A DNA stretch of 64,000 nt from Candidatus Altiarchaeota archaeon (GTDB lineage Archaea > Altiarchaeota > Altiarchaeia > IMC4 > SCGC-AAA252-I15): the NCBI GenBank assembly GCA_043800705.1, contig JAZDMS010000010.1:2570-66569 (forward strand), written 5' to 3'. Position 1 is the stretch's first letter, and each line of letters opens with the position of its first letter. Below the pieces are notes generated by a model. The model saw only the letters and a program-made list of their open reading frames with translations, was not told the origin of the DNA and did no database searches. Positions 17,673-47,496 of this stretch are shown here, one piece after another. The translations under genes were made by a program, and so were the position numbers.

Positions 17673-18480
17673 TCACGTCTTCGTCGCATTGGCGTCGACG
17701 GCTTCGAACCTCTGCCTGCAGTATAAGCACGGTAGCATGTGGCTTTTCACAATCTTCCTGAGCCTCCGGTATTTGGCCCCGTTCCATATCTCATCCAAGC
17801 CCTGCGTGAATATGTTCCCGAAGCTTTCACCGATCTGGCGGCAGGGTATCGCTAGTTTTTTCTGCGATTGTCGCATCTGTTTCCACCCTCGATGGCTTTC
17901 TGGGCTTCGTCAACCATCCTCCTCCTCTGCAGGGCCTCCAGATCCAGCGGCGGAAATTTCATATAGTTTATGCTGTTGTCTTCCCCTACGTAGCCGGATT
18001 CGACCAGCCTGGAAAGCATCCGCCTGCCGGAGTCCTTCTGGGGGATGTTGGAGAAGTGGAAGCACTGGTGCTTTACGGCGTATACCGCCATCTCAAGCAA
18101 TAACGCCTGCATGGGCGACATCCCCCGGTGAGCTCGAAAAAATCCCTGTTTGAGGCCGTGTGGGGCGACACGACCAGCTCGACATCCAGTTCCCCTCTTG
18201 ATCTCTCTTGGCTGTGTTTTATGATGCCTAATGTAAGCGCCCTGGGGGACTTATCCTCCAGCAAACACCACCCAATACCCTCGTCGGCAACCCCGATAAT
18301 CCCCCCCAAATCCTTCTTCCCCACCCGTTTGGCAAGCCTGACGGCATCCTTCTTCTGGCGTAAAGACAAACCGCTCCAAGGCATCAACTCGTAGTAACCC
18401 ATCCCATAAAATATAGCCAATACAAAAATAAAACAAAAATCGGCGAGGCTAAAATCCCTTAAAATCCGGCATGCCACCAT
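17673..18480 (-). pseudogene. Disrupted radical-SAM/SPASM-domain protein gene, split over three frames
   Basis: Three consecutive minus-strand ORFs overlap in different frames. The C-terminus has a SPASM-like Cys pattern (NRCDN...PCRQIGESFGNI...DEIWN...PCLYC). The middle part has FFELTGG (GGEP-like). No CxxxCxxC motif is found. Frame breaks sit next to homopolymers (C7 at 18301-18307, T6 at 17856-17861). Confidence 0.35.
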
Positions 18481-18589: not shown

Positions 18590-18672
18590 GCGGGGGTACC
18601 CGAGCGGCCAAAGGGGCAGGACTTAAGATCCTGTGACGCAGGTCTTCGAGGGTTCAAATCCCTTCCCCCGCA
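18590..18672 (+). tRNA. tRNA-Leu (anticodon TAA), class II with a long variable arm
   Basis: Acceptor stem GCGGGGG/CCCCCGC, anticodon stem CAGGA/TCCTG, loop CTTAAGA, T-arm GGGTTCAAATCCC. No encoded CCA. Confidence 0.85.
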
Positions 18673-18725
18673 ATCCTCGTAGGAGTCGTTTCCAGTATTT
18701 AACGAAAAAAGTAATGAATTAGAAG

Positions 18726-19220
18726 ATGAAACTAGGATTAGTAGGAAAGATAGTACTGGCTGTGTTGATTCTTATTATAGGATATTATGTATTGGGTAAG
18801 ATTCTCTTTGCTATCTTTTCCAGTAGTGTCGAATGTCATGATAAAAGCAATGGGTGGTATTGTAATGGAAACATGCCCGTGCCAATCTTCATGTTTTTCA
18901 TACAAGGTGAGTATGAGAAGAAGTGTGTCGCTGAAGGAGGGATTACTAACTGGGGCCATGGATTACTTTCAGTCGTATGCGAACTTCCATTAGACGATGC
19001 AGGAAAGACATGTACTAGTGCGTCACATTGCAAAGGCCCATGCTATGTTGAAGAAGAATATCTGAAATCTAAGTTCCCAGAGATAAAGCCTCATGAGTAT
19101 TTTGGGCTTGATTGTAGGGATTGCAAGGCACAATGCTATAAGTATAATGTGACCTGCAATGGATTTCCACCCTACACCTTAGATGACAATGGGAAAATAG
19201 CAGGGAAAATGATATGCTAG
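18726..19220 (+). CDS. Small cysteine-rich secreted or membrane-anchored protein (12 Cys)
   Basis: N-terminal TM/signal anchor and 12 Cys in about 130 extracellular residues. AT-rich codon usage unlike the flanking genes. Confidence 0.45.
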   Translation: MKLGLVGKIVLAVLILIIGYYVLGKILFAIFSSSVECHDKSNGWYCNGNMPVPIFMFFIQGEYEKKCVAEGGITNWGHGLLSVVCELPLDDAGKTCTSASHCKGPCYVEEEYLKSKFPEIKPHEYFGLDCRDCKAQCYKYNVTCNGFPPYTLDDNGKIAGKMIC

Positions 19221-19334
19221 TATTTGTAATGCCAATACTTGATACATCCTTGACTCTTTTTATTACCAGACTTGTATAAGACTATTACACGGGTTGTGTA
19301 ATCCGTTAGAGAAACGAGGCCTGTGCGGTGGACG

Positions 19335-19372
19335 CTTCCCCCGCAAACAAATAAAGGGTTCAAATCCTTTCC
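19335..19372 (+). repeat. att-like remnants: cttcccccgca plus agggttcaaatcctttcc, copies of the tRNA-Leu 3' region
   Basis: An 11-nt exact match and a 17/18-nt match to tRNA-Leu positions covering the T-arm and acceptor 3' strand. Confidence 0.5.
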
Positions 19373-19431
19373 TATCTGTTGTTAGCACGATACTTTATAG
19401 GTCTATAATGCTATAGTATTATGGTGATACT

Positions 19432-19638
19432 ATGAACACAACTATCCAAGTCAATATAGAAACCAAGAATGTTCTGGAGAGGGTCAAGGAAACGTATCAT
19501 GTAAAATCTTATGATGATGCCATCCGTAAGTTAATCAACACAAAAACGCAGAGCCTATATGGTAGCTTGGCCACAAAGAAGAACATGCAGATGAAGGACA
19601 TACTAGCGGGTTTGAGAGATAAAAATGACCGGGATTAG
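19432..19638 (+). CDS. vapB: Putative VapB-type antitoxin
   Basis: A 68-aa ORF overlapping the downstream PIN gene by 14 nt. Confidence 0.5.
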   Translation: MNTTIQVNIETKNVLERVKETYHVKSYDDAIRKLINTKTQSLYGSLATKKNMQMKDILAGLRDKNDRD

Positions 19639-20008
19639 GCTATTGATAGATTCCAGCATTTGGCTGGCCTACTTTCTCGCTTTAGAGGGGAAAGTTGCTA
19701 CCCTAATTGACTCTGAAGAAAATACACTTTACACATCAGTCATTAGCCTGCATGAAGTGCAAAAAAAATTGGCGAAGATGGGCCACACCAGCCATCAGAT
19801 TGCTAAAGCCATCGCTTTCATGAAACAGAACAGTGTGCTCGTACAAATAGACGCTAAGATAGCGGAGGCATCAGTCGCCCACTGCAGAGAACATGGACTG
19901 CACACAGTCGATGCCCTCATATATGAAACAGCAGTAGAAAACAAATGTACTCTACTGACTGGGGACTACGACTTCAAAAACCTCCCCAACACAGAGATAT
20001 TCAGGTAA
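19625..20008 (+). CDS. vapC: PIN-domain toxin VapC
   Basis: PIN acidic residues (LLIDSS, TVDALIYETA, LLTGDYDF). Confidence 0.8.
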   Translation: MTGIRLLIDSSIWLAYFLALEGKVATLIDSEENTLYTSVISLHEVQKKLAKMGHTSHQIAKAIAFMKQNSVLVQIDAKIAEASVAHCREHGLHTVDALIYETAVENKCTLLTGDYDFKNLPNTEIFR

Positions 20009-20053
20009 AGCCTGGGCCGGAAGACCGTAGACGGAGGACTGGAGACTTTCCCG

Positions 20054-20068
20054 ATCCCTTCCCCCGCA
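20054..20068 (+). repeat. att-like direct repeat atcccttcccccgca, identical to the 3' terminal 15 nt of tRNA-Leu
   Basis: Exact 15-nt match to 18658-18672. Confidence 0.55.
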
Positions 20069-20210
20069 TAGGTAAATACGCAACTGTCAACCTGATCGTT
20101 TAAAGGGTATTACTCTAAGCTGATACCTTAGGTAGAACCCATTCACCACGCTGGTTTGGTTGTTGGTCTGGCTTTCCTACGCTATTTTTCCATAATTTTT
20201 TTTAGGCCTT

Positions 20211-20341
20211 TTTTTTATTGGCTTCGATTATCCTTTTTCTTCTCTTGTCTAATTTATTCATCCTGCGCGTTTTTGCCATAATCCTTTCAACTTTATTTTT
20301 CATTGGCTTCAATTACCCTATTTCCCCTCTTGTTTAATATA
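20211..20341. repeat. Two imperfect ~40-nt direct repeats (attggcttcRattaYcct...ctcttgtYtaat) spaced ~87 nt apart, iteron-like
   Basis: Read directly: about 75% identity between the copies. Located between convergent genes. Confidence 0.3.
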
Positions 20342-20366
20342 TGCGGTTTTACTTGTATTGTGGCTG

Positions 20367-20762
20367 TCACATTTCGTGGTCGGCACCTTTCCCCGATTGG
20401 TAATCCCTGTGGTTTTGCACCAGTTCCATGAAGTGTCGCTTGTCATATACGATGCTATCCTCCATTTGGCCGTAGCTAACGGATATTTTACCCTGCTTGT
20501 TCACTCGGGCGTCGAAATGTTTCCACTTGCCGTCGCAGACGTACAGTAGCTCGCTGCCCAGGTCTTTGGCGAAGTGTAGGGTGATGCCTGCCTCATGGCT
20601 CCACTGGACCAGTTTCTCGACGCTGCGGGCCTGTTTGGGGGGCTGTAGATTCTTCTTGCAGCGGGGGCAGATCTCCTTGTCGCCAGTGTATTGGGCGACC
20701 TTGTATCTGGGTGTGAACTTTTTGCTGCATTTGGGGCAGAGATGGAACTTGTGCGTTGTCAT
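20367..20762 (-). CDS. Zn-ribbon protein with a possible PD-(D/E)xK/DUF559-like nuclease fold
   Basis: CPKC...CPRC at the N-terminus; ELLYVCDGKWKHFDAR resembles the DUF559 (Vsr-like) core. Confidence 0.4.
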   Translation of the reverse strand: MTTHKFHLCPKCSKKFTPRYKVAQYTGDKEICPRCKKNLQPPKQARSVEKLVQWSHEAGITLHFAKDLGSELLYVCDGKWKHFDARVNKQGKISVSYGQMEDSIVYDKRHFMELVQNHRDYQSGKGADHEM

Positions 20763-21572
20763 GGCGTATTCACTCCTTAGCTTAGTCTATTATTACTTCG
20801 CCCTTGGGGCCAATAAAGCAGGCGCAGACTCGACTATAAGGCTGTGAGGTGTTGGTCTACACGCTTTTTTTCACTGCCTCCATTTTACACACACATGCCA
20901 GCGCTCCAATTGATTTCATCGTTGATACCCCGCTGCTCTGCAGCGGGGACGTATGTGCACGTATCCTCTACGTATAGCTAATAAATAGGATATTGGATCA
21001 TTTTGGTTAATTTTTTTGTCTTGTGGCGCGTTTAACTGCCTTCTTGTAATTGTGTTTGTTTTTTGCTGTGTTGCACAATTAGTTGGGGTTTTTCGTTTTT
21101 TCCCTCTTATGCTCTTTGCATCTTTTGGTATGCCCCTATTTTACATGCTGCTTCTTGCAGCGTGCCTGTTTCGCTTGTTGCCCTAATTTGCTCTCCGAAA
21201 ATCCGTTTTATTATGCTTGTCGACTGAATACTGCGGGCTTTTGCCCGCAGATGAAGTGTGCCTCGTAAATCATTGGGTGCGGGGGTTTGAATCCCCTCTG
21301 CGTTTGTCCACTAGGTGCAGAAGCGGATGGGCAGGGTGTCTTCCGTGAGGGGGTTGTTTGACCCCCTTGGGATTGTTCATGGCCGGATTAAGTCGTGCGA
21401 CTTTATATCCTTCGCGGTTTTTGCGTGTTTTAAGGCGTTTGTGCTATAAGTTTGGGTGGAAACCAAGAGCGCTACGGAGCCAAGGACGACTAAGAAGAAG
21501 ACGGCCGCCAATAAGCGGTTTAACAAGATGAGGCATAATACCGAGGGCAAGCGGGGCCGCAGGTAAGCGTTT

Positions 21573-21860
21573 TTGTCTCTTGTTATGCGTTATCCTAAGC
21601 AGCTTGGGCGGATGGGGAGGTCGAGGCGGGGCAGCATATTTCTCACGAACCCTAGGGGTGAGTCCTTCAACGTCCACCAGACCGTGGCCTATATCTGGGA
21701 TAATGCGTCCGGTTCGAAGACGATCCAGGAGATATCCGACTCGCTGATGGAGGCCTTGCAGGTGAGGGAGGAGGACCGTGAGGGTGAGCGGGAGAATGTC
21801 CTCCTGGCGTTTAGGGATTTGGAGCGCAAGTCCCTGATAGAGTACAGGGTCGGGAAGTAG
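21573..21860 (+). CDS. PqqD-like peptide chaperone (RiPP recognition element)
   Basis: SFNVHQTVAYIWDNASGSKTIQEISDSLMEAL...VLLAFRDLERKSLIE matches the PqqD pattern. Confidence 0.6.
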   Translation: MSLVMRYPKQLGRMGRSRRGSIFLTNPRGESFNVHQTVAYIWDNASGSKTIQEISDSLMEALQVREEDREGERENVLLAFRDLERKSLIEYRVGK

Positions 21861-47242: not shown

Positions 47243-47420
47243 AATGGGCCCGCCCGGATTCTTGAAAAAGCCTTCGGCTTTTTACATCCAGGCGGGTGCG
47301 TGAGACGAGACGCCAGTGGGAAGATAAGAAATGGGCCCGCCCGGATTTTTCCAAAAAAGCGCCTCGCGCTTTTTACATCCGTGCGGGTTCGCGAGACGAA
47401 TTCGCTTCGGAAAGATACTA
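47243..47420 (-). repeat. Two tandem ~89-nt units, each carrying a copy of the 3'-terminal 17 nt of tRNA-Val plus an A-tract/hairpin/T-tract terminator-like element
   Basis: atgggcccgcccggatt occurs at 47243, 47330 and 47421 (the real tRNA end). The hairpins are gccttcggc and gcgcctcgcgc, each flanked by A5-6 and T5-6. Confidence 0.6.
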
Positions 47421-47421
47421 A

Positions 47422-47496
47422 TGGGCCCGCCCGGATTTGAACCGGGGACCTCCGCCATGTCAAGGCGACGTCATAGCCGGACTAGACCACGAGCCC
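47422..47496 (-). tRNA. tRNA-Val (anticodon GAC)
   Basis: Cloverleaf on the minus strand: acceptor GGGCTCG/CGGGCCC, anticodon stem TCGCC/GGCGG, loop TTGACAT, T-arm CCCGG-TTCAAAT-CCGGG. Confidence 0.8.

Follow-up and report, generated by a model that had tools for sequence, protein, structure and literature searches.

A small integrase-less island at a tRNA-Leu gene of Altiarchaeota, probably an eroded remnant of tandemly integrated mobile elements

Archaeal proviruses that reside in tRNA genes include the SSV type, which splits its integrase gene on integration, and the pNOB8/pTN3 type, which leaves that gene intact. Integrated elements of archaea target the 3' part of the tRNA gene, have direct repeats of the tRNA end at their borders and leave remnants that accumulate nearby, and in these respects they resemble the locus described here, which lies in a 64-kb stretch of an Altiarchaeota genome (the whole of which we call the window). 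Islands at the ssrA gene of Dehalococcoides have copies of the 3' end of that gene as their markers. The horizontally acquired vcrABC island is reported to be integrated at the single-copy ssrA (tmRNA) gene (PMC3146451). Site-specific integration at a small stable-RNA gene is common to these islands and the Altiarchaeota locus, but the former are kilobases long, carry metabolic operons and are bacterial. Tandem accretion at such sites, together with att-flanked remnants that lack an integrase (CIMEs), is an established pattern (Pavlovic et al. 2004, Bellanger et al. 2011, summarised in PMC5704250), a CIME being defined by the retention of attL and attR and the loss of the integration and transfer genes (PMC5704250). 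Like the island, CIMEs are found integrated at tRNA 3' ends with the tRNA intact, with several direct att copies and with a toxin-antitoxin module kept; the island is unlike them in its archaeal host, in the extremely small size of its pieces (~0.7 kb, each with a single gene or operon), in its att remnants of only 12–18 nt (two of them permuted) and in having no integrase-bearing partner. A 2026 survey found 0 proviruses in 92 Altiarchaeota genomes (PMC13573593).

Between ~18400 and 21400 of the window the GC content falls from ~0.56 to 0.39–0.47, so the sharp drop after the tRNA gene that an earlier, sequence-only reading of this DNA had noticed is plainly visible in the measurements. The foreign stretch proper is 18673–20068 (~1.4 kb), with a GC content of 0.40–0.43 and GC3 values of 0.38–0.51 (the host median is 0.73); it begins at 18673, directly after the end of tRNA-Leu at 18672, and ends at the 15/15 repeat of the tRNA end (Table 1). 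A GC content of 0.45 or less is found in only two of the 66 ORFs of the window, the 12-Cys gene (0.40) and vapC (0.45), and the genes just outside 18673–20068 have GC3 values of 0.73 and 0.77. Beyond 20068 low GC is confined to non-coding DNA and the genes are host-typical in codon composition; the intergenic DNA of the host genome is AT-rich too (for example, GC 0.34 upstream of tRNA-Leu). The island had been taken to extend over 18590–21440 (2.85 kb), and about half of this, 1.4 kb, is left to it, since coding composition is host-like past 20068. Several of the features by which a tRNA-targeted integrated element is recognised are present in what remains: it adjoins an intact tRNA gene, has a distal direct repeat and an atypical composition, and carries cargo that is att-linked elsewhere as well.

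Table 1. Features of the tRNA-Leu island (positions in the window)
Feature	Position	Strand	Evidence or remark
tRNA-Leu(UAA), intact	about 18590-18672 (ARAGORN 18589/18590-18672/18673)	+	ARAGORN; Rfam RF00005, 56.8 bits
Proximal att (attL), T arm + 3' acceptor strand of tRNA-Leu	18649-18672	+	homology with L011 begins at the T arm
Segment A, foreign, GC 0.40	18673-19334	+	conserved AT-rich upstream region + 12-Cys gene
12-Cys gene, intact, 164 aa, N-terminal membrane helix + 12-Cys extracytoplasmic domain	18726-19220	+	predicted from sequence
att copy 1, CTTCCCCCGCAA	19335-19346	+	last 11 nt of the tRNA + first flanking base, 12/12
att copy 2, AGGGTTCAAATCCTTTCC	19355-19372	+	T arm and two acceptor-strand nt, 17/18
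vapB-like antitoxin gene, 68 aa	19432-19638	+	PF02697, weak, E = 0.009; 14-nt overlap with vapC
vapC toxin gene, PIN domain, 127 aa	19625-20008	+	PF01850, 1.4e-15; phrog_9972, 4.7e-19
att copy 3, ATCCCTTCCCCCGCA, distal boundary (attR)	20054-20068	+	15/15

Three copies of the tRNA-Leu end, all in direct orientation, lie within 1.4 kb downstream of the gene, and nothing comparable occurs elsewhere in the 64-kb window. Copy 1, CTTCCCCCGCA(A), is identical to the tRNA end and its first flanking base (0.01 exact copies expected by chance in 64 kb); copy 2, which breaks off sharply right after TTCC, has a chance expectation of 0.07 at ≤3 mismatches, and its alignment to the tRNA was equalled in 0/300 shuffles; copy 3 has a chance expectation of 0.24 at ≤2 mismatches and may have a degenerate extension reaching as far back as ~20020, although the extended alignment (33/48) is not significant by itself. 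The partial copies of the tRNA 3' end that had been noted at 19335–19372 and 20054–20068 are therefore real, each being far above chance. Their number, three, also stands, with the complication that the two middle pieces are permuted, the 3'-end piece being followed by 8 nt and then by the T-arm piece. This arrangement is predicted neither by simple serial integration nor by plain two-step accretion, and like the shortness of the identities (12–18 nt) it speaks against an accretion reading. The breakpoints in the copies are sharp, show no graded decay and fall together in one short stretch. All of the recombination breakpoints lie in ATCC/CTTCC, where the T stem meets the acceptor stem, and this sequence is probably the crossover core. 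A fourth, T-arm-like copy had been placed at 21283–21298. This motif, whose true position is 21281–21296, does not rise above chance (6/100 shuffles give as many matches at ≤3 mismatches, and 12–15/300 shuffles align locally to the tRNA as well as it does), and a fourth att copy is not supported. The distal repeat also bears on the idea that the contig is an assembly artefact which joins DNA of another population at a shared tRNA sequence. The window does derive from a MAG, and tRNA genes are known in general as chimera points, but the foreign piece lies inside a 211-kb contig, with host-like sequence to either side, and the distal join would need the 15-nt repeat, which is below the usual assembly k-mers; such an artefact is extremely improbable.

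The 12-Cys protein gave no match in Pfam, PHROG or PADLOC and belongs to a rare family that has no Pfam entry, with one close homologue (88% identity) among 5.8 billion proteins and 28 remote relatives that have the same Cys scaffold. The sole close homologue is encoded on a metagenome contig from Loki's Castle sediment (L011, SDBU01023579.1). Between the two genes dN/dS is 0.12 at a dS of 0.46, with 12/12 cysteines kept, and by this measure the gene is evidently under purifying selection. The L011 gene sits in a low-GC patch (GC 0.39–0.40 against 0.46–0.54; GC3 0.35 against 0.56–0.63 in its neighbours), and directly before it is a decayed tRNA-Leu 3' fragment, (A)GGTTCAGATCTTATACCCCGCAAT, whose alignment was equalled in 0/300 shuffles; no tRNA is present there. 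The island and L011 align from 18651, in the T arm, to ~19227, ~8 nt past the stop codon, and the unit that they have in common consists of att and the 12-Cys gene only, stopping before 19335, without vapBC. A candidate second flanking repeat in L011 (174–197/750–773) matches at 17/24 positions, which is too weak to count. The foreign GC3 and this att-linked recurrence in an unrelated contig agree with the earlier assignment of the 12-Cys gene to the cargo. They also bear on the idea that no mobile element was ever involved, and that the stretch is native, fast-evolving "dark matter" in which local duplication or slippage of the tRNA gene region produced the copies of the tRNA end. The absence of an integrase and of recognisable mobile-element hallmark genes would suit a native origin, as would the AT-rich character of the genome's intergenic DNA (above). 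However, the GC3 of the intact, selected genes is far under the host range, the same gene with an att-like leader is present in a compositionally different genome and is atypical there too, and the breakpoints of the copies are clustered and sharp rather than graded, so a native origin appears very unlikely.

The second piece of the island carries the vapBC pair. The vapB-like match to PF02697 falls below the Pfam cut-off; the acidic residues D9, E44, D96 and D114 of VapC are present, as read from the translation. The PIN/VapC match and the small overlapping antitoxin-like ORF upstream of it uphold the VapBC module proposed by the sequence-only reading, and the 19432–20008 region may be classed as a predicted VapBC type II toxin-antitoxin module with intact genes. 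Its nearest relative, at locus L012, is 53% identical and has the same two-gene arrangement; it stands by itself next to an MFS gene and has no att. It could be supposed that both pieces arrived together, by a single integration of one element with 12-Cys and vapBC genes, with the tRNA end as attL and 20054–20068 as attR, and that 19335–19372 is the scar of a nested element in a CTTCC pseudo-core that was later deleted to 8 nt. Nested insertion leaves permuted pieces with both breakpoints at (C/T)TTCC, and the segments on either side of the middle att pair are similarly low in GC (0.40 and 0.43). On the other hand, an almost perfect internal deletion of the nested element is required, the unit shared with L011 ends before the middle att pieces, the L012 vapBC pair occurs by itself, and GC3 is unequal (0.38 in the 12-Cys gene, 0.51 in both vapB and vapC). 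On balance we consider a single integration unlikely.

No Pfam match to an integrase or recombinase was found in the island ORFs (≥40 aa) or in ~30 other ORFs of the window, a Pfam scan of the larger island ORFs gave no integrase either, and tblastn of the window with the integrase of the viral contig L014 (below) gave E ≥ 0.27. There are no int(N)/int(C) frames across the att copies, the ORFs that cross them being of 40–52 aa and low-complexity, and the island has no recognisable hallmark genes of viruses or plasmids; in both respects it is unlike the integrated elements of archaea. Pfam scans and tblastn thus agree with the earlier observation that the island has no integrase, and this lack marks it as a remnant and not a functional element. 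With att copies flanking both segments and no recombinase, the locus may be described as a decayed, integrase-less, CIME-like tandem remnant, which would be of a known kind and a new example for Altiarchaeota.

In the viral collection we found no att 25-mer and no relatives of the Zn-ribbon, 12-Cys or VapC proteins. Two IMG/VR viral contigs, L014 and L015 (IMGVR_UViG_3300009838_000142 and IMGVR_UViG_3300010429_001222; GC 0.39), have a 53-nt tRNA-Leu 3' fragment, without a full tRNA, that is 79% identical to 18620–18672 and matches it at every one of the last 20 nt. A Phage_integrase protein (tyrosine integrase, E = 1.3e-24) is encoded 49 nt downstream of this fragment. A search for viruses with the same att core, suggested by the sequence-only reading, has turned up the module of tRNA end and integrase, though not the 25-mer itself. 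The presence of the same last 20 nt beside an integrase argues that integrases do target this tRNA end. These contigs are like segment A in GC content and in having the att directly upstream of the element's first gene; they differ from the island in that their att fits a tRNA-Leu with a CAA anticodon and is adjoined by the integrase, not by a 12-Cys gene, and their proteins show no similarity to the island cargo. The different target and the lack of common genes make L014 an analogue rather than the parent of the island. The island cargo was found on no virus or plasmid, which, like the lack of an integrase or a fragment of one in the island and in the scanned ORFs of the 64 kb, counts against an accretion reading. 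The collections searched contained no close relatives of the host genome. A scan of genome contigs with the tRNA-Leu 3' 32-mer recovered three tRNA-Leu genes from unrelated MAGs (Methanofastidiosia, Thermoplasmata; 87% identical, GC 0.31–0.41), and the 5' 44-mer is absent from metagenome contigs. Exact look-ups of the ZIP protein of the window gave no contig on record; the loci of its orthologues (L004–L006, 59–62% identical) have no tRNA, and their synteny is limited to the nikR–ZIP pair.

The DNA beyond 20068 had also been counted as cargo. The Zn-ribbon gene there had been read as "Zn-ribbon/PD-(D/E)xK-like", but its GC3 is host-like (0.73) and no nuclease fold or motif was detected: Pfam gave only weak zinc-ribbon matches, a Foldseek search of the PDB with an AF2 model (pLDDT 75.8) gave no match at E < 0.05 and no nuclease, and a PDB profile search gave nothing. 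The supposed iteron-like repeats at 20211–20341 are actually a two-copy tandem duplication of a ~85-nt unit (20175–20257 and 20261–20342, 76% identical) with no predicted structure and no rep gene nearby, whereas iterons are at least three short (~17–22 bp) direct repeats adjoining a replication initiator gene; the single viral match to the repeat core (L013, 23 nt) is due to chance. Of the AT-rich non-coding stretch with strong hairpins, the hairpins are real (20928–20948 and 21231–21250, both perfect), and the assignment of the 811-bp gap to the cargo finds no support, nor does that of the 85-nt tandem duplication; the hairpin at 20928 has no copy in the viral collection. Two other candidate identities for the gap were rejected, a decayed copy of the RsgA-like GTPase gene that adjoins the Zn-ribbon gene at loci L007 and L009, of which tblastn found no trace, and a replication origin, as the cumulative GC skew has several equal minima. 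Orc1/Cdc6 is not among the best 25 of the 135 Pfam families listed for the whole-window scan, and a concatenate of the rSAM/SPASM pseudogene has no PDB relative by sequence.

The real att copies, the atypical composition that ends at the outermost repeat, the recurrence in L011 and the viral att-integrase module together argue for integration at 18673–20068, which is probably the eroded remnant of at least two mobile elements that integrated at the 3' end of tRNA-Leu(UAA). In such a history an element whose attP resembles the T arm and 3' acceptor strand would have recombined with the tRNA gene by means of a tyrosine integrase; the element's copy would rebuild the tRNA, and the displaced tRNA end would mark the far border with a direct repeat. 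Later arrivals would reuse the intact tRNA and push the older remnants outward (tandem accretion), and subsequent deletions would strip away the integrases and nearly all other genes. The survivors would be two att-bounded pieces of ~0.7 kb each, one with the 12-Cys gene and one with the VapBC pair; toxin-antitoxin pairs are a type of module known to resist loss. The order and number of the integration events, the type of integrase and the function of the cargo are what we infer. Serial integration at tRNA-Leu followed by erosion, as first proposed, thus fits 18673–20068 and is not supported for 20068–21440 or for the fourth att copy.

The att-linked copy in L011 is only suggestive of CIME mobilisation by an incoming integrase. 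Taken further, the unit of att and 12-Cys gene, perhaps like that of vapBC, could be a minimal integrase-less cassette of ~0.6–0.7 kb with its own copy of the tRNA-Leu end, repeatedly captured at tRNA-Leu by L014-type viral integrases acting in trans; we think this rather improbable, but if true it would represent an archaeal equivalent, anchored at tRNA genes, of the traffic in CIMEs or integron-like cassettes, and the first trace that site-specific integrative elements have left in Altiarchaeota. The locus is otherwise a case of textbook island decay, in a group in which integrated elements have hardly been reported. It draws attention to a rare, selectively maintained, membrane-anchored Cys-rich family that travels with an att site. 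The concrete att sequence, (A)GGGTTCAAATCCCTTCCCCCGCA, with its core near the ATCC/CTTCC of tRNA-Leu, is a handle for seeking the missing viruses or plasmids, whose hosts would be uncultured subsurface archaea. Despite the provirus-free survey (PMC13573593), tRNA genes of Altiarchaeota have in all likelihood served as landing sites for integrating elements.

The DNA immediately 3' of an intact tRNA-Leu(UAA) gene (recognized by ARAGORN and Rfam) is the only place in the 64 kb where GC drops deeply; the window has an overall GC content of 0.56, and values downstream of the tRNA are 0.39–0.47 to about position 21400. The sequence-only reading had proposed an island spanning 18590–21440, and the drop after the tRNA stands, but the foreign composition does not extend that far. 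Among 66 non-overlapping window ORFs for which GC and third-codon-position GC (GC3) were computed, only a gene for a 12-cysteine ("12-Cys") protein (0.40) and vapC (0.45) have a GC of 0.45 or less. GC3 is 0.38 in the 12-Cys gene and 0.51 in both vapB and vapC, against a host median of 0.73, and the Zn-ribbon and PqqD-like genes farther right are host-typical (0.73 and 0.77, respectively). By composition, the island therefore spans 18673–20068: it starts exactly where the tRNA stops and ends exactly with the 15/15 copy of the tRNA 3' end. Past 20068 low GC is found in non-coding DNA only, and AT-rich non-coding DNA occurs elsewhere in this genome as well (e.g., GC 0.34 upstream of the tRNA). 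The foreign piece is internal and its distal repeat is just 15 nt long, so that joining of unrelated DNA during assembly is a very improbable source of it. The island proteins carry the accessions MFH0861816.1 and MFH0861819.1, and the ZIP transporter of the window is 100% identical to MFH0861812.1 (on a 211-kb contig of a Candidatus Altiarchaeota MAG).

Features at and around the tRNA-Leu locus and elsewhere in the window (chance expectations are for 64 kb, both strands)
Feature	Position	Strand	Match to tRNA 3' end	Expected by chance
Radical-SAM/SPASM gene, three frames	17673-18480 (18073-18480, 17852-18121, 17673-17876)	-		
tRNA-Leu(UAA)	18590-18672	+		
Segment A (12-Cys gene)	18673-19334			
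att copy 1, CTTCCCCCGCAA	19335-19346		12/12, including first base after tRNA	0.01 (exact)
att copy 2, AGGGTTCAAATCCTTTCC	19355-19372		17/18	0.07 (<=3 mismatches)
Segment B (vapBC)	19373-20053			
att copy 3, ATCCCTTCCCCCGCA	20054-20068		15/15	0.24 (<=2 mismatches)
Spacer, 298 bp	20069-20366			
Two tandem ~85-nt units	20175-20342			
Zn-ribbon gene	20367-20762	-		
Gene-free stretch, 811 bp	20763-21572			
Perfect GC-rich hairpins	20928-20948; 21231-21250			
PqqD-like gene	21573-21860			
NUMOD3 ORF, 527 aa	34010-35593	+		
A5-stem-T5 perfect hairpins (AAAAAGCC..GGCTTTTT and AAAAAGCGC..GCGCTTTTT)	47265-47283; 47354-47374			
tRNA-Val	47422-47496	-		

A repeat search of the window recovered the three copies of the tRNA 3' end that had been claimed, all in direct orientation, and no further comparable match in the 64 kb; a supposed fourth, "T-arm-like" copy lies at 21281–21296 (two nucleotides from where it had been placed) and does not rise above chance. 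The breakpoints of the copies are sharp and clustered (CTTCC starts copy 1, TTTCC ends copy 2 and ATCCCTTCC starts copy 3), and for this reason the crossover region was probably where the T stem meets the acceptor stem.

No integrase accompanies these repeats, as had been noted. The island ORFs of at least 40 amino acids give no recombinase signal, no reading frame of the SSV int(N)/int(C) type crosses the att copies, and about 30 other window ORFs scanned singly, like the best 25 of 135 families in a whole-window scan, have housekeeping or unknown functions. The 3'-terminal 20 nt of the tRNA recur in two IMG/VR viral contigs (L014 and L015), which are 99.8% identical and represent one virus with a GC of 0.39. 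This virus carries a 53-nt tRNA-Leu fragment (L014 3184–3236) that is 79% identical to window 18620–18672 and consists of the anticodon arm (CAA), variable arm, T arm and acceptor 3' strand; it lacks the 5' half and is not called as a tRNA. A tyrosine integrase of the Phage_integrase family, 258 amino acids long (E = 1.3e-24; L014 2338–3114), starts 49 nt downstream. This is a standard attP-int module with the fragment as its putative attP, and it is evidence that the tRNA-Leu 3' end is a target of integrases. The virus and the island have no proteins in common, so the virus is an analogue rather than the parent element. It also encodes an N6/N4 DNA methylase.

The ORF in segment A encodes 164 amino acids, 12 of them cysteines, with a membrane helix at the N-terminus, and matches nothing in Pfam, PHROG or PADLOC. 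Among 5.8 billion proteins it has one close relative (88% identity), on contig SDBU01023579.1 (L011), whose accession prefix is that of the Loki's Castle deep-sea sediment metagenome. Between the two genes dS is 0.46, dN 0.057 and dN/dS 0.12, and 12 of 12 cysteines are conserved, so this cargo gene, proposed earlier and foreign by its GC3, is real and under selection. When 1.84 billion cluster representatives were scanned in full with HMMER, 28 remote relatives (E 1e-9 to 1e-3) of the same size and cysteine scaffold emerged, none with a Pfam family; these proteins are a rare uncharacterised family.

Homology between the window and L011 begins within the tRNA at the T arm, spans a 52-nt leader and the gene, and ends about 8 nt past the stop codon. 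L011 has no tRNA; at the equivalent site is (A)GGTTCAGATCTTATACCCCGCAAT, a decayed T arm and 3' end of tRNA-Leu (score 38, reached by 0 of 300 shuffles). GC is 0.39–0.40 over the initial 1.2 kb of L011 and 0.46–0.54 over the remainder, and GC3 is 0.35 in its 12-Cys gene and 0.56–0.63 in the neighbours. In both loci, whose genomic contexts are unrelated, the att plus 12-Cys unit is thus foreign by composition. This locus and the codon-position composition both speak against an origin with no mobile element involved, which we consider improbable. The unit adjoins the live tRNA in the window and sits behind a decaying att copy in L011, as would be expected of an element that joined a tandem array earlier and was then displaced outward. 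Inside the low-GC patch of L011, 3' of the 12-Cys gene, there is also a 78-amino-acid ORF (841–1077) with two predicted membrane helices and no counterpart in the window.

Segment B holds an intact vapBC pair, in agreement with the sequence-only reading: the PIN domain of VapC (E = 1.4e-15) has its acidic residues, and the vapB-like ORF upstream overlaps it by 14 nt. The closest metagenome relative among those found is 53% identical and adjoins an MFS transporter gene, without an att sequence.

The most likely history of the island is tandem integration at tRNA-Leu followed by decay. Integrase-bearing elements whose attP mimicked the T arm and 3' end of the tRNA would have integrated at least two times, each integration remaking the tRNA while the displaced end stayed behind as a directly repeated copy. 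Later deletions would have spared only att-proximal pieces, the survivors perhaps being beneficial (the selected 12-Cys gene) or resistant to loss (the vapBC addiction module). The same accretion-and-decay pathway has been described for tandems of bacterial ICEs and IMEs, and the products here match the definition of cis-mobilizable elements given there (PMC5704250). The middle att pieces are permuted (3'-end piece, 8 nt, T-arm piece), which does not fit the simplest version of accretion and requires either a third element that was almost wholly deleted or a nested insertion. Insertion at a CTTCC pseudo-core within a single older island would account for the permuted order, though we think it rather unlikely as the history of the whole.

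The Zn-ribbon gene had been taken for cargo and its product for PD-(D/E)xK-like, and neither assignment is supported. Its 13 homologues (70–86% identity) occupy four or more distinct gene contexts (next to an RsgA-like GTPase in L007 and L008–L010, next to a flavodoxin-like gene in L016, and two others), with no tRNA or att-like sequence close by; DNA homology is restricted to the coding region, and GC3 follows that of each host. The AF2 model (pLDDT 75.8; 84–91 in the alpha/beta C-terminal domain) has no significant neighbour in the PDB and no nuclease among its top matches, and Pfam and PDB profile searches gave weak zinc-ribbon matches only. We therefore treat the gene as native and of unknown function. 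In the metagenome contigs L008/L009 (1300–3900), Fic, NUDIX and ParE-like toxin genes come after it, in what looks like a variable or defence-type region.

The repeats once described as iteron-like, just downstream of the Zn-ribbon stop codon, are two T-rich units 76% identical to one another, with no predicted RNA structure and no iteron features, and they do not recur in the rest of the window. The gene-free stretch on the other side of that gene exceeds every other such gap in the window, is strongly T-rich on the + strand and is not counted as part of the island. Of the nine perfect hairpins of at least 8 bp in the 64 kb, two lie in it (local fold z-scores -2.4 to -2.8), and its sole Rfam match is a weak one to CsrC (E = 0.54), far under the family threshold. 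In relatives a divergent gene lies just 60–160 bp from the Zn-ribbon gene at this place; no remnant of a decayed RsgA-like GTPase, the neighbour in relatives, was found in the gap.

The radical-SAM/SPASM gene 5' of the tRNA is split in three frames, with a Pfam match in the final fragment only (SPASM, 2.7e-08). It lacks the N-terminal part with the CxxxCxxC cluster motif, and an intact gene would reach the tRNA position, which suggests a rearrangement or deletion 5' of the tRNA. The PqqD-like gene, of the usual partner type, is on the opposite side of the tRNA and island, another hint that the locus has been rearranged. Elsewhere in the window, an ORF of GC 0.52 that adjoins RNase P subunit genes carries the NUMOD3 motif four times (Pfam 7e-30), a DNA-binding repeat characteristic of homing endonucleases, with no recognized nuclease domain, and two A5-stem-T5 hairpins lie beside tRNA-Val.

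It is already well known that islands at tRNA genes decay and that elements accrete there in tandem. Notable here are the setting in a phylum without reported proviruses (among 92 Altiarchaeota genomes, a survey from 2026 detected none; PMC13573593), the extremely small size of the att-bounded units, and a rare att-linked family of cysteine-rich proteins.
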